A stretch of 49,993 nt of DNA from Alphaproteobacteria bacterium. Its GTDB lineage: Bacteria > Pseudomonadota > Alphaproteobacteria > Micavibrionales > Micavibrionaceae. The stretch is from assembly GCA_039808845.1 (NCBI GenBank), contig JBDHTS010000001.1, positions 1 through 49,993 on the forward strand, read 5' to 3'. The notes under the pieces were generated by a model, which was not told the origin of the DNA, made no database searches, and was given only the letters and a program-made list of their open reading frames with translations. The translations under genes and the position numbers were made by a program. Shown here piece after piece: positions 9,928-41,174 of the stretch. Each line of letters opens with the position of its first letter. Position 1 is the stretch's first letter.

Positions 9928-9940
9928 TGTTTGCATGCAA

Positions 9941-10047
9941 GCCCCTCCCTGAGGGAGGGGTTGGGGAGGGCGCGCACTCCGGGGCCTTTTAAGTTATATA
10001 CGGTTCGTGAACCCCCACCCCGGCCCTCCTCCTGAGGGGGAGGGGGT
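9941..10047 (-). repeat. REP-like ~105-nt palindromic intergenic element, copy 1 (inverted relative to copies 2 and 3)
   Basis: gcccctccctgagggaggggttggggaggg...acccccaccccggccctcctcctgagggggaggggg. Its reverse complement aligns with 19526-19629 and 35718-35825. Confidence 0.8.
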
Positions 10048-19512: not shown

Positions 19513-19525
19513 AGGCAGAAATTGA

Positions 19526-19629
19526 CCCCCTCCTCATCACGGGGAGGGCCGGGGCAGGGGGGTACGGACCGATGGTCTTAAAGCCCCTTGGCCTGTACAC
19601 CCTCCCCAACCCCTCCCTTAGGGAGGGGC
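19526..19629 (+). repeat. REP-like ~105-nt palindromic intergenic element, copy 2
   Basis: ccccctcctcatcacggggagggccggggcagggggg...caccctccccaacccctcccttagggaggggc, starting 14 nt after the rhlE stop. Confidence 0.8.
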
Positions 19630-19735
19630 TCTCTTTGGGAGAGAAGAGTTGAAGGAAATATTCATAAAATGGCTTTCGCGCCTTGACGGGGCTGCGTGGA
19701 GATTCCACAATTGCCGCGGGTTCCGGGAGTTTTTA

Positions 19736-29666: not shown

Positions 29667-29751
29667 GCGGATGTGGCGGAACTGGCAGACGCACCAGATT
29701 TAGGTTCTGGCGGGGCAACCCGTGGGGGTTCGAGTCCCTTCATCCGCACCA
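29667..29751 (+). tRNA. tRNA-Leu (anticodon TAG), long variable arm, CCA encoded
   Basis: Acceptor stem gcggatg/catccgc, anticodon arm ccaga-TTTAGGT-tctgg, variable arm gcggggcaacccgtg; 85 nt. Confidence 0.92.
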
Positions 29752-29785
29752 GCCTCCGCCCTGCCGGGCTTCGGCTCGGCAGGCC
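29752..29785 (+). repeat. Conserved tRNA-trailer hairpin with UUCG tetraloop, copy 1
   Basis: gcctccgccctgccgggcTTCGgctcggcaggcc has a 10-bp stem (CCUGCCGGGC/GCUCGGCAGG). A near-identical copy follows tRNA-Val(CAC) at 41073-41105. Confidence 0.7.
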
Positions 29786-29846
29786 ATATATGGGTTCATT
29801 GAACCGTTTTAGACACGATTTTGAAAAGAAAAGAGACGAACAAACG

Positions 29847-31277
29847 ATGCAAGTCAAGGAACTGAAAAGCGAAGGTCTGGTCCGCGAACTGGAAGTGGTG
29901 CTGCCCGCCAATGAGATCGGGCGCCGCGTGGACGAACGCCTTAAAGATTATGCGAAGAGCGCCAGAATGCCCGGTTTCCGCCCCGGCAAGGTGCCCGCTC
30001 AGGTTTTGAAGCAGCGTTATGGCCGCGCCGTTCTGGGCGAGGTTCTGGAGTCCGCCGTGAACGACACGACGCAGAAGGTGCTGCAGGACAAGGGCCTGCG
30101 CCCGGCGATCCAGCCGAAAATCGAAGTGAAGGAATTCGACGAGGGCAAGGATCTGAAATACACGATGGAAGTCGAACTGCTTCCCGAATTCGAGGTCACG
30201 GATCTTAAATCCCTTAAATTGACGAAGCCGGTCGTCAAAGCCGATGCGGCGGCCGTCGGCGAAGCGCTGGAGCGCATCGCCAAGAACAACCGCGACACCA
30301 AAAAGATCGAGACCGGGCGCGCTTCCAAAAAGGGCGATGTCATCCTGATGGATTTTCATGGCCGGACGAAGGCAGACAACAAGCCGCACCCCGGCATGCA
30401 TGCGCACGGCCACAAGCTGGAACTTGGCAGCGGCCAGTTCATTCCCGGCTTCGAGGACCAGCTGACCGGCAGGAAGGCGGGCGAGAAGGTCGAGGTTCAT
30501 GTAACCTTCCCCGAAGTCTACCATTCCGAGGAACTCGCGGGCCAGGATGCGATCTTCGACGTCGATATTCATGAGATCCACGAACCGGCGGACGCCGCGA
30601 TCGACGACGATTTCGCCAAGAAGCTGGGCTTTGACGACCTGACGGCGCTGAAAGGCGCGGTCGAGAAGCAGATGCAGTCGGAATACGACCAGCAGAGCCG
30701 CATGAAACTGAAGCGCAGCCTGCTGGACGCGCTGGACGACGCGCACAGCTTCGCCGTGCCGCAGGGCATGCTGGACCTCGAATTCCAGAACATCCAGCAG
30801 CAGATCCGGCTTGAGCGCCAGAATGAAGTGAAGGACGGCAAGCTGGACCTGACCGATGAGGAGATGGAAGAGCTTCGCGCGATTGCCGAGCGCCGCGTGC
30901 GTCTTGGCCTGGTCCTCTCGGAAATCGGCCGCCAGAACAATATCCAGATCACGGACCAGGAATTGCAGCGCGCGGTGATCGCCGAGGCGCAACGCTATCC
31001 CGGCCAGGAAGCGGTGGTGTTCGATTACTACCGCAAGAACCGCCAGGCGCTCGACGCCCTGCGCGCGCCGGTGTTCGAGGACAAGATGGTCGATTTCATC
31101 AGCCAGCTGGCCACGATCGAGGAAAAGCCGGTCTCTGTTGAAGAACTGACCGCAGAAGAGGATGAAGAATCCTATCTGGAACGGAAGAAGGGCGGCAAAA
31201 AAGGCAAGGCAAAATCCGCCGCAGCCGATGAAGGCAAAAAAGCCTCAGGCGCGAAAAAAGCTTCCAAAAAGGAATAA
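29847..31277 (+). CDS. tig: Trigger factor
   Basis: I prefer the ATG at 29847 (MQVKELKSEGLVRELEVVLP); the listed ORF start at 29673 would overlap tRNA-Leu. Supporting segments are GFRPGKVP, an FKBP-like middle part (GDVILMDFHG...FIPGFEDQL) and a Lys-rich tail. Confidence 0.95.
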   Translation: MQVKELKSEGLVRELEVVLPANEIGRRVDERLKDYAKSARMPGFRPGKVPAQVLKQRYGRAVLGEVLESAVNDTTQKVLQDKGLRPAIQPKIEVKEFDEGKDLKYTMEVELLPEFEVTDLKSLKLTKPVVKADAAAVGEALERIAKNNRDTKKIETGRASKKGDVILMDFHGRTKADNKPHPGMHAHGHKLELGSGQFIPGFEDQLTGRKAGEKVEVHVTFPEVYHSEELAGQDAIFDVDIHEIHEPADAAIDDDFAKKLGFDDLTALKGAVEKQMQSEYDQQSRMKLKRSLLDALDDAHSFAVPQGMLDLEFQNIQQQIRLERQNEVKDGKLDLTDEEMEELRAIAERRVRLGLVLSEIGRQNNIQITDQELQRAVIAEAQRYPGQEAVVFDYYRKNRQALDALRAPVFEDKMVDFISQLATIEEKPVSVEELTAEEDEESYLERKKGGKKGKAKSAAADEGKKASGAKKASKKE

Positions 31278-31394
31278 TCAACCGGCCTTCGGACAAACCG
31301 TCTCTTGGGATGTGGTTTGCCTGGGTCGATGGTAGTGTGCCGGTTTGAAAGATGCGACATGCCCGCGCTCAATCCGTTTTCCTCTTCCTGTGTG

Positions 31395-31504
31395 GCGGGA
31401 GGGGGGAGCCAGAGGGGGGAGGGCTGCCTTGAAAATCGGTAAAGATTCAGAGATTTAAGAAAGCCCTCCCTCCTTAATCATCCCTCCCGAAGACGGGAGG
31501 GATG
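31395..31504. repeat. Cluster of G/C-rich palindromic sequences downstream of tig, a degenerate relative of the REP-like family
   Basis: ggcgggaggggggagccagaggggggagggctgcc ... agccctccctcc, then a perfect 11-bp hairpin catccctcccg-aaga-cgggagggatg (31479-31504). Confidence 0.5.
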
Positions 31505-31561
31505 AGATAAAAAAGATCCGCGAGCATAGATCCGCATTCAAAACGATCCACGACCCAATCG

Positions 31562-32326
31562 GTGCAAAGATTGCTCGCCTGGCAAGATTGGTGTATTTTC
31601 ATATTGATGAAATTGAGGATACCGCAGGATCAGCTGGAATTTTATCCAGCCCCATTATCATGTCGGCAGACATTTAATGGCAGAAGCGACCTGCTTTCAA
31701 ATTTCAACTGCCTGAATTATGCCCTCGATTATTGGGAGCATGCCTGGGCCAGGCCAGACACATTTTCAGCCCGGATTGGCTATGAACGAAGTTTGGCCAG
31801 CACCTATCGCAAAGGCGGTGATCCGGAATGGGCATTGCGCAATCCCCATCGCCGCCATTTGACGATTGACTTCAAGAAGCATGTCACAGAACACTGGAAA
31901 GACGTTATTGATTTCACTGACGATAAAGTTCTGGATCCGTTTTTTCGCGATTGTGCAGGCGCTGGTCTTATCCCTGTAAAGCGGCCGGTCACGGCAGGGG
32001 GATACAGGCTGATCGCGCACATTCAGGACAAGTATTTATTAAAACGCCATGAGGAAACCCTGGGGATGCAGGGTAAAGACGCGCACTGGATCCGGCTCGA
32101 CAGGGATGGATATTGGACCGAGAAGTTCGGGGATGGAGATATACAGGCGTTTAAATCGGGCGCAGGCCAAAATGTCATCCTGCCCCATATAGAACTGGCT
32201 CCGGATCGTGACGATCAAAAGTATATTTTCGTTCAATATTATCTTGCGCCGGTTGATATTCATCACCGGAAACCGTCCGTTCTTCCTTTTGCAAAACGCC
32301 CCATCGTTCTTGAGCTTTGTGACTAG
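31562..32326 (+). CDS. Orphan protein, candidate papain-fold Cys-His hydrolase (254 aa; alternative ATG at 31607)
   Basis: Low-GC ORF with no signal peptide and no clear SD. SNFNCLNYALDYW (Cys50) and GKDAHWIRLDRDGYWTEKFGDG (His175) resemble the papain-like CGSCWAF and HAV...YWxxKNSWG blocks. This rests on motif resemblance only. Confidence 0.5.
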   Translation: MQRLLAWQDWCIFILMKLRIPQDQLEFYPAPLSCRQTFNGRSDLLSNFNCLNYALDYWEHAWARPDTFSARIGYERSLASTYRKGGDPEWALRNPHRRHLTIDFKKHVTEHWKDVIDFTDDKVLDPFFRDCAGAGLIPVKRPVTAGGYRLIAHIQDKYLLKRHEETLGMQGKDAHWIRLDRDGYWTEKFGDGDIQAFKSGAGQNVILPHIELAPDRDDQKYIFVQYYLAPVDIHHRKPSVLPFAKRPIVLELCD

Positions 32327-32334
32327 GACAGACC

Positions 32335-32563
32335 CTTGATGCGTTTCACGCCCGTCTTCGAAGACAAGATGGTTGATTTCATCAGCCAGCTGGCCGTAAT
32401 CGAGAAAAGCCCGTGACGGTCGAGGATCTGGCCGCCGAAGAGGATGAAGAGTCCTATCTGGAACGGAAGAAGGGTGGCAAATCTAAGGAAAAAACCACGA
32501 AATCAAAGAATAAAACCGAAAACCCATCAAAAAAGGCCGATTCCAAAGCTGCTAAAAAATAAA
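32335..32563 (+). pseudogene. Orphan duplicated 3' end of tig (last ~70 codons) carrying a 1-nt frameshift
   Basis: It aligns with tig at 31050-31277 at roughly 85% identity: ...gtcttcgaagacaagatggttgatttcatcagccagctggcc...gaagaggatgaagagtcctatctggaacggaagaagggtggcaaa.... A 1-nt deletion after atcgag creates a TGA. It has its own Lys-rich tail and TAA at 32561-32563. Confidence 0.8.
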
Positions 32564-32635
32564 AATTGACTCCAGCCATGGATTAACATTACCTTAATTT
32601 GAATGACAATATGAAAATTATAAAGAGGAACAGAA

Positions 32636-33226
32636 ATGGTTGCAGAAAAAATTAGAAATGCACTCACCGGCGCGGTTCTGGCTGGAGGAGTGGCGGTAAC
32701 GCCTGTCGTTGATGCCCGTGCTGAGTCTGTGAATCCTACGGGGAATATTTTAAAAGATACGTTGTCTGTAGTTCCTGCCGCTCTTCAAAACGCGGCCGAC
32801 CTCGTATGCGGACCGGGAGGTTATCCCGATCCCAAGGCGGTTGATTTGTTCTTAGGCGAAATAATGTGGGCGCAAAAGGAACAAGGAACGGAGGTCTCAC
32901 AAGAAGCTGGGATCTCAAGGGGCTCCTTATTGAGCGCATTCCCCGCAACTGCTTCGGCGATTGATGGTCTGAGGGCTCGTCTTGACGCGATTGTGGGGGG
33001 AGACCCTCGAATCCAAGCCCTCGAAAATCATGGCTCGCTTGATCCCAAGCGGCCTATGGATAACTGGCTCTTGGTTGATAAGGCCATGCATGCCGTATGC
33101 GACCATAGTGACGAACTCATCGGGGCTGTTCGTGAAACTATAGATGGTCTCGACACGGATAAAATTGGACATGAGCTGGGTCTGAGCAGGCCCACCGCGC
33201 CAAGACCGGCGCCCGGTGTTTCATAA
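32636..33226 (+). CDS. Secreted orphan protein (196 aa)
   Basis: Good SD (agagga) and a signal-peptide-like N-terminus (ALTGAVLAGGVAVTPVVDARA). I recognise no family. Confidence 0.6.
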   Translation: MVAEKIRNALTGAVLAGGVAVTPVVDARAESVNPTGNILKDTLSVVPAALQNAADLVCGPGGYPDPKAVDLFLGEIMWAQKEQGTEVSQEAGISRGSLLSAFPATASAIDGLRARLDAIVGGDPRIQALENHGSLDPKRPMDNWLLVDKAMHAVCDHSDELIGAVRETIDGLDTDKIGHELGLSRPTAPRPAPGVS

Positions 33227-33265
33227 CTGTGAAGTGTACGCGATTTTACAGTTTTTATTTGTGCT

Positions 33266-33355
33266 CTTAAACAAACCGTATCCCTGTGATACGGTTTGTT
33301 CGTCTTTTTATTCTGGTAAACGGAGCGAGAGCGCAGCATGTACGAATGTGGCCCA
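33266..33355 (+). repeat. Orphan duplicate of the clpP upstream hairpin/leader plus the first clpP codons
   Basis: cttaaacaaaccgtatccctgtgatacggtttgttcgtctttttattctggtaaacggagcgagagcgcagcATGTACGAAtgtggccc aligns at about 80% identity with 34971-35063. It reads MYECGP then a stop. Confidence 0.8.
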
Positions 33356-33460
33356 TAGCGGGCCCTTGAATTTCCCTGTCTATTTTCATCTTTTTGGAAA
33401 ATATTGACAAGAAAAGCATGAAAGCTTAATGTTAATTATATGTAAAAACATAGATCATTT

Positions 33461-34858
33461 ATGATTTTGATAACAGATGCTATGAGATATCTCCGTTATC
33501 CAGACGCCGAACTCTCAGGCGAGCCTCCATTATTCTTTTCCACTATTTCATCCCGGCTCGACATTCTGGGCAGGAGGCTTGATCAAGCCGAGGCAGCCAA
33601 TAGGGATTATAAAGAAGAGAACAACTCTTCCATTTCGCCGTCCGATGCAATACGGGCGGATTTTCCCATACTGGATTTTCTTGAGGATGGCGCTTATCCG
33701 GCTGTCGTTATTATAAGCACGGATGATCTTGCCGCATTCCGTGAAAATGTACCGGAGGCTGAACAAGAGGAAAATTTCAAGAGGCACCTTATAAGCAATG
33801 GTTTCAATGAAGCGGAGGCGGACAAAATCGCCAAAAGCGTTTCTGAATATATGAAAAGCATTCAGAGCGACATATCCTCCGTCACTTTGACGTCTTCGGA
33901 TATGTCAAGGCCCATCGTTATTATGAAGGAATTCTCGGATAAAGAAGATCTCGTCTTCAGGGCGACAGGAAAAAGAGGGTGGATCAACCTACCGGGGAAT
34001 ATTGAGGATTATAACAATTTTAGCCTGCTGCATGAACTTGCGCATGCCAAAAGCCCAAGGGAACGCCATGGCGAGCGTTACGCCGATCAAGATGCGGCAA
34101 AAGAATATCTGAAATTATATTTGCAGGGGAAACAGGAGAGCCCCGACGTTCCTTACGCCTTCCGCGCCTTAAGGATTTTGAAGGCGGTGGAAACTCCCTT
34201 GGGGACATTGGATGAACATCTGGTGGCATTTTTGTCCGTTCTTCCGGGCGAAAAGCCTCATGGCATAAACCCCGAAACTTTCTCCAGAGCGATTAACGAT
34301 GCAGACATGAAAATCGCCATGGAAGTCGGAAAAGACCGTATGACCGAAGACGATGCTTATATATCTGCGGTCGACAGGTTGCTGGAAAAGATGAACAGCC
34401 CGAAATTTATCGATAAATACGGATCGCTCAAAGCTGAAGTCATTGAAAAAGTCCGGGAAGCGATGGGCGCTCATGATATGAAGTCTCTAAAGGGATTTAT
34501 TGCGCTTCTTCCTGAAGAACTGCGGAGAAGCTTTCAAGAGAGCATTCCCATGTCGTATGCTCTGGAAGGTTACAGGGCGCTGTCAGAACAACCTGAATTA
34601 AGATATGCCCTTGCGAAGAAATTTCTGGACCAGAGCCGATTTGACGATCCTGCCCAGAGATATTACATTGAAAAATTCCTGGATGCCGCGCAAAGATACG
34701 CTGCCGATTATTATAAAGTTCCAGAGGAAGACCGTAAATCTCAAACGCCCTATGCCGACGGAGAAATATCGCTGGCCGGTTTAAGCGCAGAGTTGTCGGC
34801 GCAGCCGGATCACAGAATGCCAGCCCAACAGGCTCCCGTTCCGGCCTTTCCGCAGTAA
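33461..34858 (+). CDS. Orphan protein with a single HExxH motif, candidate zinc metallopeptidase (465 aa)
   Basis: Low-GC ORF with SLLHELAHAKS at aa 188-198 (HELAH = nt 34031-34045). It has no signal peptide and no obvious SD. A plausible promoter lies upstream: TTGACA 33404-33409, 17 nt, TAATGT 33427-33432. Confidence 0.6.
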   Translation: MILITDAMRYLRYPDAELSGEPPLFFSTISSRLDILGRRLDQAEAANRDYKEENNSSISPSDAIRADFPILDFLEDGAYPAVVIISTDDLAAFRENVPEAEQEENFKRHLISNGFNEAEADKIAKSVSEYMKSIQSDISSVTLTSSDMSRPIVIMKEFSDKEDLVFRATGKRGWINLPGNIEDYNNFSLLHELAHAKSPRERHGERYADQDAAKEYLKLYLQGKQESPDVPYAFRALRILKAVETPLGTLDEHLVAFLSVLPGEKPHGINPETFSRAINDADMKIAMEVGKDRMTEDDAYISAVDRLLEKMNSPKFIDKYGSLKAEVIEKVREAMGAHDMKSLKGFIALLPEELRRSFQESIPMSYALEGYRALSEQPELRYALAKKFLDQSRFDDPAQRYYIEKFLDAAQRYAADYYKVPEEDRKSQTPYADGEISLAGLSAELSAQPDHRMPAQQAPVPAFPQ

Positions 34859-34970
34859 GGCAGTCGAAAATCACCGTATAAAGTCCGGAAAAATCCGGAG
34901 ATGTCCCCGTATGATCCAAGCAAGACTGCCCGACCGGCATAGCGCGCAGAATTTGCTGGCCTGATTACCC

Positions 34971-35045
34971 CTTGAACAAACCGCATCCACGCGATACGGT
35001 TTGTGTGTCTTTGATTCCTGTAAACCGAGCAAGAGCGCAGCCTCC
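34971..35045 (+). promoter_or_regulatory. Native clpP upstream hairpin/leader (counterpart of 33266-33337)
   Basis: cttgaacaaaccgcatccacgcgatacggtttgtgtgtctttgattcctgtaaaccgagcaagagcgcagcctcc immediately precedes the clpP ATG. It contains the aaccg.atc/gatacggtt hairpin. Confidence 0.55.
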
Positions 35046-35699
35046 ATGTACGAACGCGACCCGTTAGAAGTCTATAACAATACCCTGGTTCCGATGGTCA
35101 TCGAGCAGACCAACAGGGGCGAGCGGTCTTATGACATTTATTCGCGGCTGCTGAAGGAGCGCATCATCTTCCTGACGGGCGGGGTCAACGACCATGTGTC
35201 GAGCCTGATCTGCGCACAGTTGCTGTTCCTGGAGTCGGAGAACCCGAAGAAGGATATCGCGTTTTACATCAACTCGCCGGGCGGCGTTGTGACGTCGGCG
35301 CTCGCCATGTACGACACGATGCAATACATCAAGCCCGACGTTTCCACGGTCTGCACGGGGCAGGCGGCTTCCGCCGGGTCGCTGCTGCTGACCGCCGGCG
35401 CGGCCAACAAGCGGTATTCGCTGCCGCATTCCCGGATCATGATCCACCAGCCGCATGGCGGCGCGCAGGGGCAGGCGTCCGATATCGAGATCCAGGCGCG
35501 GGAGATCCTGCGTCTTCGCGCCAAGCTGAACGAGATTTATGTCAAGCATACGGGCCAGAAGCTGAACGCCATCGAGAAAGCCATGGACCGCGACAATTTC
35601 ATGTCCGCCGAGGAAGCCAAGGCATTCGGACTGATCGATCATGTGGTCGAGGCGCGCCCGGATGCGCTGGCGCCGGCGGCTGAGCCTGAGAAGAAGTAG
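35046..35699 (+). CDS. clpP: ATP-dependent Clp protease proteolytic subunit
   Basis: I prefer the ATG at 35046 ([43 protein letters not shown]). The catalytic-Ser context is [11 protein letters not shown] and the His context is MIHQP. Confidence 0.95.
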
Positions 35700-35717
35700 G
35701 TTCTCGCCTGATTTTGA

Positions 35718-35825
35718 CTCCTTTCCCCTTAAGGGGGAGGGCCGGGGCGGGGGTTTCGGACCGTTGTTTTTTGCACTTACAGCCACACTTGTAAACCCTC
35801 CCCAACCCCTCCCTCAGGGAGGGGC
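35718..35825 (+). repeat. REP-like ~105-nt palindromic intergenic element, copy 3
   Basis: ctcctttccccttaagggggagggccggggcgggggt...aaccctccccaacccctccctcagggaggggc, starting 19 nt after the clpP stop. Confidence 0.8.
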
Positions 35826-36097
35826 TTCAGAGCGGCGCGTGCCGCAACAATAAGCGCGTTGGAGAGAAAGCTCTATTCCTGAATTGCTGAGCGGGCATAA
35901 CATCTGGGGAATGTATATTCATAATAAAATTTAATGCTTCGTTCCTGCGTGTAAGTTACAACAGCAGGGGTTGATTTTCGGATGGTTATGGCCCACTTCT
36001 CCTTAAAGAATATGGCCAAAACCGGGCAAGAGTCTGTTAACCTGTTCCGTCGTATGGTGGAATGGGGCCCGAATACCCTGAAGATTGAGAGTGTTCC

Positions 36098-38521
36098 ATG
36101 ATCGGATTGTCTTCCTCAAACCGCGACCTGCCGCTTCCCGTTCTTCCACTTCGGGACATTGTCGTTTTTCCGCATATGATCGTTCCCCTGTTCGTCGGGC
36201 GCGAGCGGTCGGTGCGCGCGCTGGAACAAGTGGTCAATGCAGGCAAGCAGATCCTGCTGGTCACCCAGAAATCGCCGTCGCAGGACGATCCGGCGTCCGG
36301 CGACCTGTATGGCGTCGGCACGCTGGGCACGATCCTGCAGCTCCTGAAACTGCCGGACGGCACGGTCAAGGTTCTGGTCGAGGGGAACCGCCGCGTCAGC
36401 ATCAGGGAATACAGCCCGCGGCAGGAATACCTTGAAGCCGGCTATGAGGATATCAAGGACCTGACCGTCCGCAACGACGATCTGGACGCGCTGGCGCGCA
36501 CGGTGGCGACCCAGTTCGAGCAATACGTCAAGCTGAACAAGAAGATCCCGCCGGAAGTCATCGTCTCCGTCAACCAGATCGAAGAACCCGCGAAACTGTC
36601 CGACACGGTCGCGGCGCATCTGGCGCTGAAAATCGAGGACAAGCAGAAGCTGCTGGAAGCCGCCAACACGGCGGAGCGGCTGGAGCACATCTTCGGCTTC
36701 ATGGAAGGAGAAATCGGCGTCCTGCAGGTCGAGAAGCGCATCCGCAACCGCGTCAAGCGGCAGATGGAGAAGACCCAACGCGAGTATTACCTGAACGAAC
36801 AGATGAAGGCGATCCAGAAGGAACTCGGCGACGGCGAGAACGCGCTCGACGAGATGGAGGAACTCGCCAAGAAGATCGCCGAGACCGGCCTGTCCAAGGA
36901 GGCGAGGGAAAAAGCCGACCATGAACTGAAGAAACTGAAGCAGATGAGCCCGATGTCGGCGGAAGCGACTGTCGTGCGGAATTATCTGGACTGGATCCTG
37001 TCGCTGCCGTGGGCGAAGCGCACGCGCGTCAAAAAGGATATCAAGGCGGCGAAAAAGATTCTCGACCAGGACCATTTCGGACTGGAAAAGGTGAAAGAGC
37101 GCATTCTTGAATACCTGGCCGTGCAGCAGCGGACGAAGAAGATCAAGGGGCCGATCCTGTGCCTCGTCGGCCCGCCCGGCGTCGGCAAGACGTCGCTGGG
37201 ACAGTCCATCGCGAAGGCGACCAACCGCAATTTCGTGCGCATGTCTTTGGGCGGCGTGCGCGACGAAAGCGAGATCCGCGGCCACCGCCGGACCTATATC
37301 GGCGCGCTGCCGGGCAAGGTCATCCAGGGCATGAAGAAGGCCAGTTCCGGCAACCCCTTGTTCCTGTTGGACGAGGTGGACAAGCTGGGGAACGACTGGC
37401 GCGGCGACCCGAGCGCCGCGCTGCTGGAAGTGCTCGATCCCGAACAGAACGGCACGTTCAACGACCACTATCTCGAACTGGACTATGACCTGTCGGACGT
37501 GCTGTTCATCTGCACGGCCAACACGACGGCGACCCTTCCGCGGCCCTTGCTGGATCGTATGGAGATCATCCGCGTGTCAGGCTATACCGAGGACGAGAAG
37601 CTGGAGATCGTGAAACGCCACCTGCTGCGCAAGCAGACGGAGGCGGCGGGCCTGAAAAGAGGCGAGTTCGGCATCAACGACGCCGCCGTGCGCGACCTGA
37701 TCCGTTATTACACCCGCGAGGCGGGCGTGCGGAACCTGGAGCGCGAGATCGCCAACCTCTGCCGCAAGGCGATCAAGGAGATCCTGATGCGGGGCCGCAA
37801 GGAAGTCCGCGTCACGCCGCGCAACCTGGAGAAATACGCAGGCGTCCGCAAGTTCCATTACGGCGCGGCGGAGGAGCAGGACAAGGTCGGCGTCGTCAAC
37901 GGCCTGGCCTATACCGAGTTCGGCGGCGACCTGCTGTCGATCGAGGCGGTGACCATGCCGGGCAAGGACGGCAAGGTCACGACCACGGGCAACCTGAAGG
38001 AAGTGATGAAGGAATCCATCGTGGTCGCCGAAATGCTGATCAAATCGCGCGCGGCGCAGTTCGGGATAAGGCACAGCGAACTGAACAAGACGTCGGTCCA
38101 CGTGCACGTTCCGGAAGGGGCGACGCCCAAGGACGGCCCCTCGGCGGGCGCGGCGATGGTGACGGCGATCGTCTCGGCCCTGACGGGCATCGAGATCCGG
38201 CGCGACGTCGCGATGACGGGCGAGATCAACCTGCGCGGCTATGTCACCGGCATCGGCGGCCTGAAGGAAAAGCTTCTGGCGGCGCTGCGCGGCGGCATCC
38301 GCACCGTGCTGATCCCGAAAGACAACGAGAAGGATCTGGCCGAAATTCCCGACAAGGTGAAGAAGGGGCTGAAGATCATTCCCGTCAACCGCATCGAAGA
38401 GGTTCTGGCCAATGCGCTCACGCGTATTCCCGATCCTGTGCGCATCGAAAAGGATACGGATATCGAGGCGATCCCCACGCAAACGGGCGATGGCGTCGCG
38501 GGCGATGTCATCAGGCACTGA
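36098..38521 (+). CDS. lon: ATP-dependent Lon protease (LonA)
   Basis: 807 aa: N-terminal LPVLPLRDIVVFPHMIVPLFVGRERS, Walker A GPPGVGKTS, Walker B LFLLDEVDK, and the protease Ser context PKDGPSAGAAMVTA. Confidence 0.97.
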   Translation: MIGLSSSNRDLPLPVLPLRDIVVFPHMIVPLFVGRERSVRALEQVVNAGKQILLVTQKSPSQDDPASGDLYGVGTLGTILQLLKLPDGTVKVLVEGNRRVSIREYSPRQEYLEAGYEDIKDLTVRNDDLDALARTVATQFEQYVKLNKKIPPEVIVSVNQIEEPAKLSDTVAAHLALKIEDKQKLLEAANTAERLEHIFGFMEGEIGVLQVEKRIRNRVKRQMEKTQREYYLNEQMKAIQKELGDGENALDEMEELAKKIAETGLSKEAREKADHELKKLKQMSPMSAEATVVRNYLDWILSLPWAKRTRVKKDIKAAKKILDQDHFGLEKVKERILEYLAVQQRTKKIKGPILCLVGPPGVGKTSLGQSIAKATNRNFVRMSLGGVRDESEIRGHRRTYIGALPGKVIQGMKKASSGNPLFLLDEVDKLGNDWRGDPSAALLEVLDPEQNGTFNDHYLELDYDLSDVLFICTANTTATLPRPLLDRMEIIRVSGYTEDEKLEIVKRHLLRKQTEAAGLKRGEFGINDAAVRDLIRYYTREAGVRNLEREIANLCRKAIKEILMRGRKEVRVTPRNLEKYAGVRKFHYGAAEEQDKVGVVNGLAYTEFGGDLLSIEAVTMPGKDGKVTTTGNLKEVMKESIVVAEMLIKSRAAQFGIRHSELNKTSVHVHVPEGATPKDGPSAGAAMVTAIVSALTGIEIRRDVAMTGEINLRGYVTGIGGLKEKLLAALRGGIRTVLIPKDNEKDLAEIPDKVKKGLKIIPVNRIEEVLANALTRIPDPVRIEKDTDIEAIPTQTGDGVAGDVIRH

Positions 38522-38790: not shown

Positions 38791-39066
38791 GTGAACAAGC
38801 AAGAACTGATCAACGAAGTCGCCAAGCAGGCCGACCTGCCGAAAATCAAGGCCCAGGCCGCCGTGGAAGCTGTCTTCGACTGCATTAAACTGACCCTGAA
38901 AAAAGGCGGCGAAGTCCGCCTTGTCGGCTTCGGCACCTGGACGGTCGCGAAGCGCGCCAAAACCACCGGCCGCAACCCGCGCACCGGCGAAGCTATTGAC
39001 ATCCCGGCTTCCAAACAGCCGAAGTTCAAAGCCGGCAAAGAACTGAAAGACGCCGTGAACAAGTAA
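38791..39066 (+). CDS. hupB: Nucleoid-associated DNA-binding protein HU
   Basis: 91 aa with a GTG start: MNKQELINEVAKQADLPK...VRLVGFGTWTVAKRAKTTGRNPRTGEAIDIPASKQPKFKAGKELKDAV. Confidence 0.92.
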   Translation: MNKQELINEVAKQADLPKIKAQAAVEAVFDCIKLTLKKGGEVRLVGFGTWTVAKRAKTTGRNPRTGEAIDIPASKQPKFKAGKELKDAVNK

Positions 39067-39090: not shown

Positions 39091-39126
39091 ATTCAGCCAT
39101 GCATCGTTGCATGGCTGAATTTTATT
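39091..39126 (+). terminator. Rho-independent terminator of hupB
   Basis: 13-bp stem attcagccatgca-tcgt-tgcatggctgaat followed by tttatt. The T tract overlaps the stop codon of the convergent pip gene. Confidence 0.75.
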
Positions 39127-40123
39127 CAGGGCTAAAAGCTGATTTCGGGCGTATATGCGGTTTGGGCAACAGCGGGCTGCCTGTGTCTCTGATGCGGTCT
39201 GTCGCTCTTATAAGGGCATCAAGCGTTTCGGGATCCCTGGCATCATGACCGGATCTGAAAAATTCTATCTGTGCGCTGGGCATCGCTTTCTTGAAAGCAT
39301 GGGCTGTTGTAGGAGGACAAATCTGATCAAAGCGCCCTTGGGCACCATACGCCGGAATATGCCGTATTCTTTCGCAATTTTTTAAAACCCTGTCATCAGG
39401 AGTGAAGAGATGGTTGCGAAAATATGCTGCTTCGATCCTCGCCATCGACAATACAACATGGTCTGGCATTGGCTCTTCGGGACGTCCAGTGGAATTGATT
39501 GAAAAGCTTTCGCTTTCGTGATTGGTCCAGGCAATGGCAGCGGGCCTATGAATAGCAGGATCCGGATCCATCAGGCGCTTGTAATAGGACTCAAATAGAT
39601 CGCCTTGCTCTTTCTTTGGTAAAAAATCGACAAAACGTTCCTGTGCTTCGGGAAAAGTTTTACCCATGCCATGAATAAAATGATGAACTTCCTCCCGGCG
39701 CATAGCAAACAGGCCGCGAAGGGTCAGGCTTCTGCAATTTTCCGGATGTTCCTGAGCTGACAGCAGGGCGAGAGTCGATCCCCACGATCCGCCAAAGATG
39801 TGCCAGGATTCTATGCCCAGCTCCTGCCTCAATTGTTCCAGATCTCTTACCAGATCGTCAGGCGTATTTTCCCTGGTTTCCGCATGCGGCGTCGATTTCC
39901 CGCAGCCTCTTTGGTCGGGCAGAATGATGCGAAAAGCGGCAGGATCGAAAAACTGATGATGGTAGGGCGCGCATCCAGAACCCGGGCCACCATGCAGGAA
40001 CAGCATCGGAATGCCTTCAGGATTTCCATGCTCGGCATAATGAATGGTGTGAAGGTCGCTGACGGCCAGTTTGCCCTGATTGAAAGGTTCCGATGCAGGA
40101 TAAAGTGTCCTCAGGCCGCTCAT
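39122..40123 (-). CDS. pip: Prolyl aminopeptidase (proline iminopeptidase)
   Basis: 333 aa alpha/beta hydrolase: LFLHGGPGSG, DQRGCGKSTPH, nucleophile elbow GGSWGSTLAL. G+C is visibly lower than in neighbouring genes. Confidence 0.9.
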   Translation of the reverse strand: MSGLRTLYPASEPFNQGKLAVSDLHTIHYAEHGNPEGIPMLFLHGGPGSGCAPYHHQFFDPAAFRIILPDQRGCGKSTPHAETRENTPDDLVRDLEQLRQELGIESWHIFGGSWGSTLALLSAQEHPENCRSLTLRGLFAMRREEVHHFIHGMGKTFPEAQERFVDFLPKKEQGDLFESYYKRLMDPDPAIHRPAAIAWTNHESESFSINSTGRPEEPMPDHVVLSMARIEAAYFRNHLFTPDDRVLKNCERIRHIPAYGAQGRFDQICPPTTAHAFKKAMPSAQIEFFRSGHDARDPETLDALIRATDRIRDTGSPLLPKPHIRPKSAFSPE

Positions 40124-40997: not shown

Positions 40998-41072
40998 GGG
41001 CACATAGCTCAGCGGGAGAGCACACCCTTCACACGGGTGGGGTCGCAGGTTCAATCCCTGCTGTGCCCACCA
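40998..41072 (+). tRNA. tRNA-Val (anticodon CAC), CCA encoded
   Basis: Acceptor stem gggcaca/tgtgccc, anticodon arm caccc-TTCACAC-gggtg; 75 nt. Confidence 0.92.
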
Positions 41073-41105
41073 GCCTTCGCCCTGCGGGCTTCGGCTCGGC
41101 AGGCC
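41073..41105 (+). repeat. Conserved tRNA-trailer hairpin with UUCG tetraloop, copy 2
   Basis: gccttcgccctgcgggcTTCGgctcggcaggcc differs from 29752-29785 by one substitution and a 1-nt deletion. It is followed by attttcaaaaa. Confidence 0.7.
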
Positions 41106-41174
41106 ATTTTCAAAAATGAACTTTTCCAATGCTTTCCGCGTAGGCAGGACAGATCCAACCGAAAGGAGTCTGTC

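Follow-up and report, generated by a model that had tools for sequence, protein, structure and literature searches.

The hairpin, promoter and leader that precede clpP occur twice in the window, meaning the whole 49,993-nt stretch of DNA analysed, and we judge it moderately likely that this duplication is a recombination scar left by gene exchange with relatives at a common insertion hotspot. The orphan clpP leader would be the right end of a second allelic tig-clpP spacer (32342-33355) comprising a tig 3' end, ORF196, the hairpin with the clpP promoter, and the leader continuing into the first 17 nt of clpP. This allelic version would either have been imported from a related Micavibrio-like lineage or represent an older resident version. 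The locus is most likely a fairly ordinary example of genome mosaicism.

Duplication of the clpP leader

Self-BLAST of the window aligns 33266-33354 with 34971-35062 (78.5% identity over 93 columns, E about 2e-13), and the Smith-Waterman score of the pair is 85, compared with 15.1 +/- 2.3 (maximum 26) in 500 shuffles; nowhere else in the 50-kb window does the score exceed 29. The duplication described in the initial annotation (33266-33355 and 34971-35063, ~80%) is thus real, with about 78-80% identity, far beyond chance. The match has three parts: the hairpin, with arms AACAAACCGTATC/GATACGGTTTGTT in the upstream copy; the leader, ...GAGCGAGAGCGCAG; and ATGTACGAA plus 8 more bases. In predicted function, the repeated unit is a tig-ending hairpin overlapping an RpoH-like clpP promoter; downstream come the 5'UTR and the first 17 nt of clpP.

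Both copies contain the hairpin, as described, except that the native one (34976-35004, followed by the 5'UTR) carries one C.A mismatch (aaccgCatc). The orphan hairpin is a perfect 13-bp stem (33270-33300, followed by CGTCTTTTTATT; fold -17.2 kcal/mol, z -6.7). The promoter-like boxes read CTTAAA-N15-TGATAC in the orphan unit and CCCTTGAA-N15-CGATAC in the native one. The orphan start encodes MYECGP and then a stop, exactly as noted before (ATG TAC GAA TGT GGC CCA TAG, 33338-33358), and the only sizeable + strand ORF between the leader copies is indeed ORF465 (Table 1).

The native unit differs from that of the closest relative, L003, at 6 of 76 columns (4 non-stem and 2 stem), while the orphan copy shows 16-17 differences from each of these two. 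Between the orphan copy and L003, 0/26 stem positions and 16/50 non-stem positions have changed (Fisher P = 0.0005), a distribution showing that the orphan stem was preserved, evidently by selection, while about 30% of the remainder changed.

Table 1. Features of the tig-clpP spacer and independently assembled contigs spanning parts of it (window positions)
Feature	Position	Strand	Remarks
tig (trigger factor), intact	29847..31277	+	Pfam Trigger_N, FKBP_C, Trigger_C
H0, candidate third, decayed hairpin copy	31286..31322	+	GGACAAACC...GGTTTGCC; 9 nt past tig stop
Degenerate GGGAGGG/CCCTCCC palindromic element	31397..31505	.	Motif-related to a dispersed REP/MITE-like repeat in the genome
ORF254, orphan cargo gene	31562..32326	+	Likelier start ATG at 31607
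CCCTTGA at ORF254-segment/tig-tail-remnant junction	32333..32339	+	Same as first 7 nt of native promoter/hairpin block
tig-tail remnant	32342..32562	+	Begins near codon 405; own stop TAA at 32560-32562
ORF196, orphan cargo gene between the two remnants	32636..33226	+	Signal-peptide-like N-terminus; GC3 0.48
Orphan terminator/clpP-promoter/leader unit (putative roles)	33266..33355	+	Self-BLAST, Smith-Waterman, fold, terminator-like match
CCCTTGAA, left boundary of ORF465 segment	33363..33370	+	Same as first 8 nt of native block
Sigma-70-like boxes TTGACA-N17-TAATGT before ORF465	33404..33432	+	Read from sequence
ORF465, bracketed by the leader copies	33461..34858	+	Small uncharacterised HExxH protein family
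Native tig-terminator/clpP-promoter/leader unit (putative roles)	34969..35045	+	Orthologous to L003 empty-site spacer
clpP, intact	35046..35699	+	Pfam CLP_protease, E 6e-85; 98% aa identity to L003
Logan contig X2 record 9	32134-32659
Logan contig X6 record 10	32270-32420
Logan contig X4 record 26	32273-32462
Logan contig X7 record 17	32321-471
Logan contig X4 record 27	33105-33426
Logan contig X4 record 29	34795-35026		Spans with 4 differences

The structure in independent assemblies

Logan contigs assembled from public runs on activated sludge, wastewater, and bioreactors (at least six runs, three coded studies) span either the ORF254/tail junction or the ORF196/leader/ORF465-upstream region with 0-1 differences and no gaps, which indicates that the structure is not an assembly chimera. 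The window is probably metagenome-derived and its repeats differ at strain-to-species level, as they would if a chimeric contig had joined the tig-clpP versions of two strains, but such an artefact is extremely improbable: the independently assembled contigs reproduce the junctions, including the frameshift in the tail remnant, and both remnants are truncated and give way to unique sequence, not to tig or clpP. The lower-share runs X5-X8 contain the same organism at low depth, and no donor or intermediate form was seen in them.

The tig-tail remnant

The duplication of the tig end that had also been proposed is confirmed (31066-31199 and 32349-32481, 86% identity, E 3e-37). The intact tig encodes a protein 84% identical to that of L003, with a similar C-terminus (...SGAKKASKKE*). 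The remnant contains one frameshift, after 32404, which is also present in the independent contigs. It differs from the live tail at 18/129 nt, distributed over first, second, and third codon positions as 3, 1, and 14; of the codons affected, 11 changed synonymously and 4 non-synonymously. For in-place pseudogene drift, the binomial P of this pattern is about 0.005 or lower. The remnant is 86% identical to the live tail of the window and 83% to that of L003, and the latter two are 87% identical to each other. In addition, it keeps an in-frame Lys-rich C-terminus (…AVIEEKPVTVEDLAAEED…ADSKAAKK*; tig allele end ...AVIEEKPVTVEDLAAEEDEESYLERKKGGKSKEKTTKSKNKTENPSKKADSKAAKK*) unlike the one common to the window and L003. 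The third-position bias and the distinct C-terminus together indicate that the remnant evolved within a working tig of another lineage. As judged from these substitutions, its past as a functional gene is established, and it is accordingly not an in-place duplicate; the codon-position pattern and the C-terminus alike speak against the suggestion that the tail was regenerated on the spot.

The tig-clpP spacer across the clade

The organism is Micavibrio-like. In L003, tig and clpP are separated by just 109 nt, an empty site that includes the hairpin and leader. Measured against this site, the entire 3.7-kb stretch from tig to the native leader is extra, so the spacer does contain an insertion, as originally proposed; the genes flanking it are housekeeping genes in synteny with L003. 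Among the 75 tig-clpP loci surveyed in the clade (window included), 26 have a spacer of >500 nt, filled with unrelated cargo that always lies upstream of the CTTGAA box. The survey thus yields both an empty site in the closest relative and alternative cargo elsewhere, and the junction is a clade-wide hotspot. The description of the spacer as usually short and conserved holds as to the median (213 nt), alongside this recurrent expansion.

Flank copies, at the DNA or the protein level, occur in this window only (1/26 expanded spacers), a pattern that does not bear out the proposal of a flank copied anew with every cassette insertion. Flank copies are also absent from the other window-specific insertion (39122-40123) and from the surroundings of the ORF465 homologues L001 (repeat check) and L002 (by eye). 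A scan for a recombination breakpoint by sliding third-position identity to L003 in tig, clpP, and lon gave no clear signal.

Origin of the remnants

The initial annotation took the two remnants for separate nested scars. Around ORF196, their order, orientation, and spacing are those of the native locus, and because of this colinearity we read them as opposite ends of a single allelic tig-ORF196-clpP spacer. In the mechanism we propose, DNA from relatives would have recombined with tig or clpP as the homologous anchor, with a microhomology-type illegitimate join at the other end, a process termed homology-facilitated illegitimate recombination (HFIR) and also 'sequential displacement'. Each event would bring cargo together with a full functional flank (ORF254 with the tig end, ORF465 with the clpP promoter and start), and the earlier, truncated flank would be displaced inward. 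In a one-step variant, a foreign tail-ORF196-leader fragment would have been captured between ORF254 and ORF465.

Several features of the locus agree with displacement of this kind. A conserved anchor lies beside variable cargo (26/75 loci), the truncated older anchor ends lie inward in the same orientation, and the tail is the remnant of a divergent allele; the live tail and leader are the L003-like copies. The sequence CCCTTGA(A), with which the native block begins, recurs at both ends of the tail-to-leader block, so that exact copies flank 32340-33362 and 33371-34968; the CCCTTGAA at 33363 lies 8 nt beyond the end of the leader homology. This recurrence would fit microhomology joins. A metagenome scan for the donor allele with the remnant-specific 18-mer CAGCTGGCCGTAATCGAG returned 41 matches, all attributable to chance; neither a donor nor an intermediate genome turned up, homologues of ORF196 and ORF254 are lacking, and a search for exact-protein records of ORF465, ClpP, and Tig found none. 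A simple tandem duplication was rejected, since it would put the leader copy before the tail copy, the opposite of the observed order.

In an alternative account, every insertion would have duplicated part of the flank already present, about 215 nt at the end of tig and about 90 nt of clpP leader, after which the redundant copies decayed in place. Direct repeats do bracket ORF254 and ORF465, the 20-30% divergence of the non-coding leader copy could be neutral decay opposite a constrained live copy, and GCGCAG and ATGTACGAA are common to the orphan and native leaders, against L003. Nevertheless, we consider this origin unlikely for the pair of remnants, given that the tail bears the marks of purifying selection (P about 0.005) and has a C-terminus of its own, that the divergence rivals the distance between the window and L003, whose site is yet clean and empty, and that there are no copies in the other expanded spacers or at the L001 paralogue locus checked. 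Moreover, we know of no insertion mechanism that copies 90-215 nt of its target. Considered alone, the leader copy may have arisen by in-place duplication. Its non-stem divergence of about 26-30% exceeds expectation under the exact history of the tail remnant (P about 0.01), and it may therefore have been stranded earlier or derived separately.

The placement of CCCTTGA(A) allows another possibility, in which the palindrome with its CCCTTGAA edge is an attachment site for a recombinase acting in trans; integrase-less segments would have integrated serially, in the manner of IMEX elements at dif or of integron cassettes, one of them imprecisely excised from a relative and carrying tig and clpP ends. 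Copies at 32333, 33363, and 34969 fall exactly on the module boundaries, the 7-mer occurs elsewhere on the + strand about 6 times in 50 kb, and we estimate the chance of placement at both junctions at roughly 1e-5 to 1e-4. The palindrome also has arms of 12-13 bp around a 5-7-bp centre, and the hotspot is clade-wide. However, microhomology joins just as typically show repeats of 7-8 nt. The spacer and its surroundings contain no recombinase, the neighbours being housekeeping genes syntenic with L003. In the expanded spacers of relatives, the box 7-mer recurs at most 1-2 times (in four loci), untied to cargo boundaries. The palindrome is itself typical of short, empty spacers and missing from expanded ones, and its G.U pairs point to an RNA hairpin. 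We therefore regard both the serial integration and the imprecise excision as improbable. Rated slightly lower is a broader proposition, in which the tig-clpP spacer would serve Micavibrio-like bacteria as a dedicated platform for gene capture. A host recombinase would insert integrase-less single-gene segments serially at the CCCTTGAA-edged palindrome, its attachment site, and these segments could include pieces imprecisely excised from relatives; a terminator and a heat-shock-type promoter would thereby be supplied to every newly arrived gene.

The locus was also compared with known mobile elements. Cassette insertion had been suggested, and neither transposase nor integrase nor terminal inverted repeats were found at the spacer segments. 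The 90-nt and 134-nt repeats far exceed the 2-15 bp target duplications of transposons and are only 78-86% identical, although the exact CCCTTGA(A) copies do flank two of the segments. As attL/attR sites they would offer longest identical runs of 23 nt (tail) and 12 nt (leader), with CCCTTGA(A) as a possible core. For an integron cassette array, there is no integrase nearby and no hairpin after ORF254; hairpins follow tig, ORF196, and ORF465, the post-tig match (H0) being only marginal.

A hairpin with putative terminator and promoter roles

The hairpin occurs in compact, 96-123-nt tig-clpP spacers, and in these it must end tig. In an alignment of 13 sequences, 5/14 pairs show compensatory changes and 97.7% of cells are paired, which 0/500 shuffles equal. 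From this covariation, the hairpin is a real, selected RNA-type structure, with the sequence and fold of an intrinsic terminator. The G.U pairs within the arms favour an RNA hairpin over a protein-binding DNA palindrome. Almost all loci with the palindrome have short, empty spacers and expanded spacers lack it, and we rejected the hairpin as a general driver of insertion.

The orphan hairpin and its CGTCTTTTTATT lie about 43 nt past the ORF196 stop, compared with 34 nt past the tig stop in L003. The orphan hairpin and T-run most likely now terminate ORF196. The weakened RpoH-like boxes of the orphan copy may contribute extra transcription into ORF465. H0, just downstream of tig, folds at -20.6 kcal/mol (z -2.0) and is a possible present-day tig terminator. 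Its kinship to the other copies is marginal: its local alignment with the orphan copy (score 24) is matched by 2/1000 shuffles, that with L003 by 9/1000, and that with the native copy by 48/1000. An Rfam scan of 31000-36200 returned nothing relevant.

In most of the 75 relatives, the boxes upstream of clpP, a classical heat-shock gene, follow the pattern CTTGAA-N~15-C(G/T)ATA(G/C). The alphaproteobacterial RpoH (sigma-32) consensus, as quoted in PMC4843759 from Barnett et al. 2012, is CTTGAA-N15-16-CCTATAT. The promoter and terminator roles at tig-clpP are predictions.

The cargo genes

ORF254 has no homologues among 5.8 billion proteins; its GC3 of 0.51 compares with 0.77-0.85 in host genes, and its GC1 > GC2 is coding-like. 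ORF196 has only a self-match in the protein database. Together with ORF465, they have no family match in Pfam, NCBIfam, PHROGs, or PADLOC, and no terminal inverted repeats were found at the segment ends and no transposase or integrase among the three.

ORF465 was said to have a plausible promoter of its own. TTGACA-17-TAATGT boxes are present, but the '-10' matches the consensus at 3/6 positions only, which is why they are missing from the consensus-scan list. The AT-rich 45 nt just before the ORF465 ATG resemble the region upstream of its L001 homologue. ORF465 has two close homologues (58% and 34% identity) and 75 cluster representatives by profile. It was compared with zincin metallopeptidases, whose hallmark is an HExxH motif plus a third zinc ligand in a zincin fold. 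Within the family (42 members), H191 and E192 are invariant, and H195 and E205 are at least 90% conserved. An AlphaFold2 model reached pLDDT 83 and pTM 0.81 (an earlier one from 3 sequences, with pLDDT 55, was too poor for use). Foldseek found no match to it with E <0.3 in PDB or BFVD, and the sequence has no match in Pfam or PDB. Cargo ORFs in the spacers of relatives gave no hits to the family HMM. A by-product of this work is thus a small HExxH family, as yet uncharacterised, for which there is a confident model but no structural relative in these searches, and whose paralogues are wedged between housekeeping genes.

Significance and comparison with known systems

The locus offers a clean, datable view of a compact, normally conserved chaperone-protease operon junction turned gene-acquisition hotspot in a predatory bacterial group. 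It suggests that stranding and reuse extend beyond coding ends to regulatory modules, in this case a terminator, promoter, and start codon. A codon-position test like the one applied to the tig remnant offers a simple discriminator between an imported allele and an in-place duplication. The finding is also of practical use to annotators, since both the MYECGP mini-ORF and the tig tail are pseudogene scars.

Hotspots of horizontal transfer between conserved core genes are a general concept, and the tig-clpP spacer resembles them as a single interval between syntenic core genes whose cargo differs by lineage and which is empty in many genomes. It differs in that most of its cargo consists of single orphan ORFs without mobile-element genes, and this window also retains allelic flank remnants. 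Integrative elements at gene ends (tRNA/tmRNA islands) and IMEX at dif are likewise bracketed by gene-end direct repeats, leave the target intact, and can form arrays. Here, in contrast, an integrase and a long identical core are both lacking, the repeats reach only 78-86% identity, and the segments are single genes of 1-1.6 kb. With RpoH promoters, the clpP boxes share a resemblance to the published consensus and a position upstream of a heat-shock gene, but the -10 is a partial match, the spacing is off by about 1 nt, and in the subclade both boxes lie inside the arms of the tig terminator hairpin.

A further parallel is with displacement arrays. Rhs, CDI, and T6SS effector loci contain orphan 3' ends and immunity genes in arrays (PMC5361080), and displacement by HFIR, leaving orphan gene ends, is the model proposed for T6SS/Rhs (Kirchberger et al. 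2017, PMC5361080, where de Vries & Wackernagel 2002 and Prudhomme et al. 2002 are cited for HFIR). The tig-clpP spacer shares with them an anchor gene, non-homologous cargo, truncated same-orientation ends lying inward, divergent alleles, and the lack of a dedicated mobility gene. It differs in that its anchors, tig and clpP, have housekeeping functions and are not toxin genes, both sides of the spacer bear scars, the mechanism is one we infer, and the clpP-side scar is a regulatory module (putative terminator and promoter, 5'UTR, and start codon) instead of a coding 3' end.

Duplicated flanks of the tig-clpP spacer

Self-BLAST of the window pairs the orphan clpP leader (copy 1) with the native copy over 93 columns, 78.5% of them identical (E 2e-13), bearing out the duplication of about 80% identity proposed in the initial annotation. 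The local alignment score is 85, compared to 15.1 +/- 2.3 (maximum 26) in 500 shuffles and at most 29 for the next-best match to the leader unit elsewhere in the 50 kb. The match comprises a hairpin with a 13-bp stem, the leader following it, ATGTACGAA, and 8 further bases; the orphan copy reads MYECGP and then a stop, as had been described, and the reported tig-tail duplication likewise holds. No further direct repeats above 60 nt occur in the window, if a REP-like family and one repeat of 41 nt are set aside. Contigs assembled independently in three coded studies (runs on activated sludge, wastewater, and bioreactors) extend across the junctions, all but one with 0-1 mismatches and no gaps, and their spans include the tig-remnant frameshift; a chimeric contig is thereby excluded, and an assembly artefact is barely conceivable as the source of the duplicated flanks.

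Coordinates of features in the window
Feature	Position	Remark
tig	29847-31277
tig-tail copies	31066-31199 / 32349-32481	86% identity
H0	31286-31322	weak hairpin, 9 nt past tig stop
CCCTTGA(A)	32333-32339	between ORF254 stop and tail remnant
CCCTTGA(A)	33363-33370	8 nt past end of leader homology
CCCTTGA(A)	34969-34976	first 7-8 nt of native block
tig remnant	32342-32562
copy 1	33266-33355
aligned leader copies	33266-33354 / 34971-35062
orphan reading frame	33338-33358	MYECGP, stop
ORF465	33461-34858	HExxH
clpP	35046-35699
clpP-lon spacer	35700-36097	no clpX
junction contigs, 0-1 mismatches	32134-32659, 32273-32462, 32270-32420, 32321-32471, 33105-33426	no gaps
junction contig, 4 mismatches	34795-35026
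41-nt repeat	29747-29787 / 41068-41107	overlaps tRNA genes
REP/MITE-like repeat	9939-10047, 19522-19630, 35714-35830	dispersed, palindromic, intergenic; ~110 nt
REP/MITE-like repeat, degenerate	31397-31505
HU-like gene	38791-39066
333-aa ORF	39122-40123 (- strand)	between HU-like gene and tRNA-Val
tRNA-Val	40214

The REP/MITE-like repeat has the form GGGGAGGG...CCCTCCCC, with copies 74-76% identical, and does not occur in ~55 kb of sequence from the closest relative. The clpP-lon spacer of the window exceeds that of L003, the relative's tig-clpP locus, because it holds one copy. The 333-aa ORF sits in a 1.1-kb stretch that has no L003 counterpart, and no flank duplication surrounds it.

Empty site and hotspot

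A Tig-based scan recovered 80 related loci. The source organism is a Micavibrio-like alphaproteobacterium, and the gene order in this clade is tig-clpP-lon without an intervening clpX (L003-L082); more distantly related alphaproteobacteria (L074-L077) have ~1.6-2.4 kb between clpP and lon, with room for one gene. The survey of the tig-clpP spacer in relatives suggested in the initial annotation found an empty site in L003 and unrelated cargo elsewhere. The L003 spacer, between genes encoding Tig and ClpP 84% and 98% identical to those of the window, is 109 nt long (stop, 34 nt, CCCTTGAACAAACCGTATCCACGCGATACGGTTTGTTTGTCTTTGATTCCTGTAAACCGAGCAAGAGCGCACCTGTC, ATG). The alignment with L003 runs to the tig stop (31277) and resumes from 34966, so the intervening 3.7 kb is all extra in the window. 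The spacer has a median length of 213 nt and exceeds 500 nt in 26 of 75 loci (maximum 5.1 kb), and the ORFs in expanded spacers are for the most part restricted to one lineage and show no relation to the cargo of the window. In two of these loci, both from distant relatives, a further clpP paralogue, divergent at ~35% identity, precedes the main clpP downstream of tig (L070 11478-12449; L072 11454-12419). A CTTGAA box adjoins clpP in every expanded locus, so the cargo always lies upstream of the predicted promoter. This spacer is a hotspot of horizontal transfer, and the duplicated leader is most likely a scar that recombination left there. Copies of a locus's own flanks occur in the window only; BLASTN, and TBLASTN with each locus's Tig tail and ClpP N-terminus, found none at the other loci.

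Cargo genes

The three cargo genes have a GC3 of 0.48-0.51 vs 0.77-0.85 in tig, clpP, lon, and glnA. Both ORF254 and ORF196 are orphan genes without family matches. ORF465 has two close homologues: the first (58% identity) is encoded by the closest relative, where murC and murB enclose it (L001 10001-11251), and the second (34%) lies beside fba on another contig (L002 10001-11251). A more distant paralogue in the closest relative lies beside rpmI (L124 6001-7248), so that all three have housekeeping genes as neighbours. No flank copies occur at L001, where nucleotide similarity to the window is limited to the gene, plus ~45 AT-rich upstream nt alike by eye. A profile search gathered 75 cluster representatives of this unannotated HExxH family of ~420 aa, in which H191 and E192 never vary and H195 and E205 hardly do. 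ORF465 has no sequence match in Pfam or PDB, and a confident AlphaFold2 model of it (pLDDT 83, pTM 0.81) matched no fold in either PDB or BFVD; a putative zincin-like metallopeptidase is a reasonable guess.

The duplicated module and its possible reuse

Upstream of clpP, 75 loci keep CTTGAA, ~15 nt, C(G/T)ATA(G/C)GTTT, and a TGATTCA box. The former resemble the RpoH1 consensus CTTGAA-N15-16-CCTATAT (quoted in PMC4843759), and we infer an RpoH-like promoter. In many of L003-L082 the TGATTCA box follows the RpoH-like -10, at 60-110 nt ahead of clpP; its equivalent is GATTCC in the native leader and TATTCT in the orphan one.

In a compact-spacer subclade (96-123 nt), the arms of a 12-14-bp hairpin contain both boxes. 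Across 13 sequences, 5 of 14 stem pairs show compensatory changes and pairing is 97.7% vs 30-45% with partners slid, values matched by none of 500 shuffles; on the + strand, G.U pairs are common. These observations indicate an RNA hairpin, predicted to end tig transcripts and overlapping the predicted clpP promoter. The duplicated "clpP leader" is thus a terminator/promoter/5'UTR/start module. A weak third hairpin resembling the duplicated one, H0 (alignment P ~0.002-0.05), is a candidate that may be the present tig terminator.

The native leader is the L003 orthologue (6 differences in 76 columns), and copy 1 is 16-17 differences away from each of them. Compared to L003, 0 of 26 stem positions of copy 1 differ and 16 of 50 others do (Fisher P = 0.0005). 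Its stem is perfect (-17.2 kcal/mol, z -6.7), is followed by CGTCTTTTTATT, and lies ~43 nt past the ORF196 stop; the native stem has one mismatch (-12.3 kcal/mol). Copy 1 has evidently been kept as a hairpin by selection, and is most simply the predicted ORF196 terminator.

Origin of the duplicated flanks

Over 43 comparable codons, the tig remnant differs from the live tail at 18 of 129 nt (codon positions [3,1,14]; 11 synonymous and 4 conservative non-synonymous codons). Third positions account for 78% of differences, compared to ~45% expected for in-place pseudogene drift (P = 0.005). Past one frameshift, the remnant keeps an open frame over 27 codons, closed by a stop of its own, and its Lys-rich end, …KSKEKTTKSKNKTENPSKKADSKAAKK, is unlike the …SGAKKxxKKE common to the window and L003. 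Tail identities are 86% (remnant-live), 87% (L003-live), and 83% (remnant-L003). The codon-position pattern, distinct end, and distances imply that the remnant evolved within a working tig of a third, related lineage. The initial annotation's observation thus stands, and its interpretation only in part: the substitution pattern, with the absence of flank copies from other loci, argues against each insertion regenerating a copy of a flank. In-place duplication accompanying cassette insertion is accordingly unlikely, although the leader copy considered alone may have arisen in place. Its non-stem divergence (~26-30%) exceeds expectation from the tail remnant's exact history (P ~0.01), and it may have been stranded earlier than the tail.

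ORF196 lies between the two remnants, whose order, orientation, and spacing are the native ones, so that 32342-33355 looks like one allelic tig-ORF196-clpP spacer. CCCTTGA(A) recurs at the inserted-module boundaries more than chance would allow, other + strand CCCTTGA sites numbering ~6 in 50 kb, mostly in coding sequence; this suggests either microhomology at illegitimate joins or the short core of a site-specific reaction. The latter would need a trans-acting recombinase that integrates segments at a CCCTTGAA/palindrome site, which we consider rather improbable; no transposase, integrase, or terminal inverted repeats were found at the spacer. As target-site duplications, the flank repeats are too long and too diverged.

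We lean slightly toward recombination with relatives that stranded an allelic flank. DNA of related lineages carrying different cargo at this hotspot would recombine here, with conserved tig or clpP as the homologous anchor and an illegitimate join at the opposite end, i.e. homology-facilitated illegitimate recombination, or "sequential displacement". The ORF196 allele could be an older resident version, stranded by one import per side, or a piece of foreign DNA taken up between ORF254 and ORF465. No donor sequence for this allele was found, and no breakpoint is visible in tig or clpP. The window would then add an example to a process of known kind, its twist being that the stranded regulatory module appears to be reused as a predicted terminator. 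Its stranded flanks can be likened to the orphaned gene ends of T6SS and Rhs arrays, for which a "sequential displacement" model has been proposed (PMC5361080).
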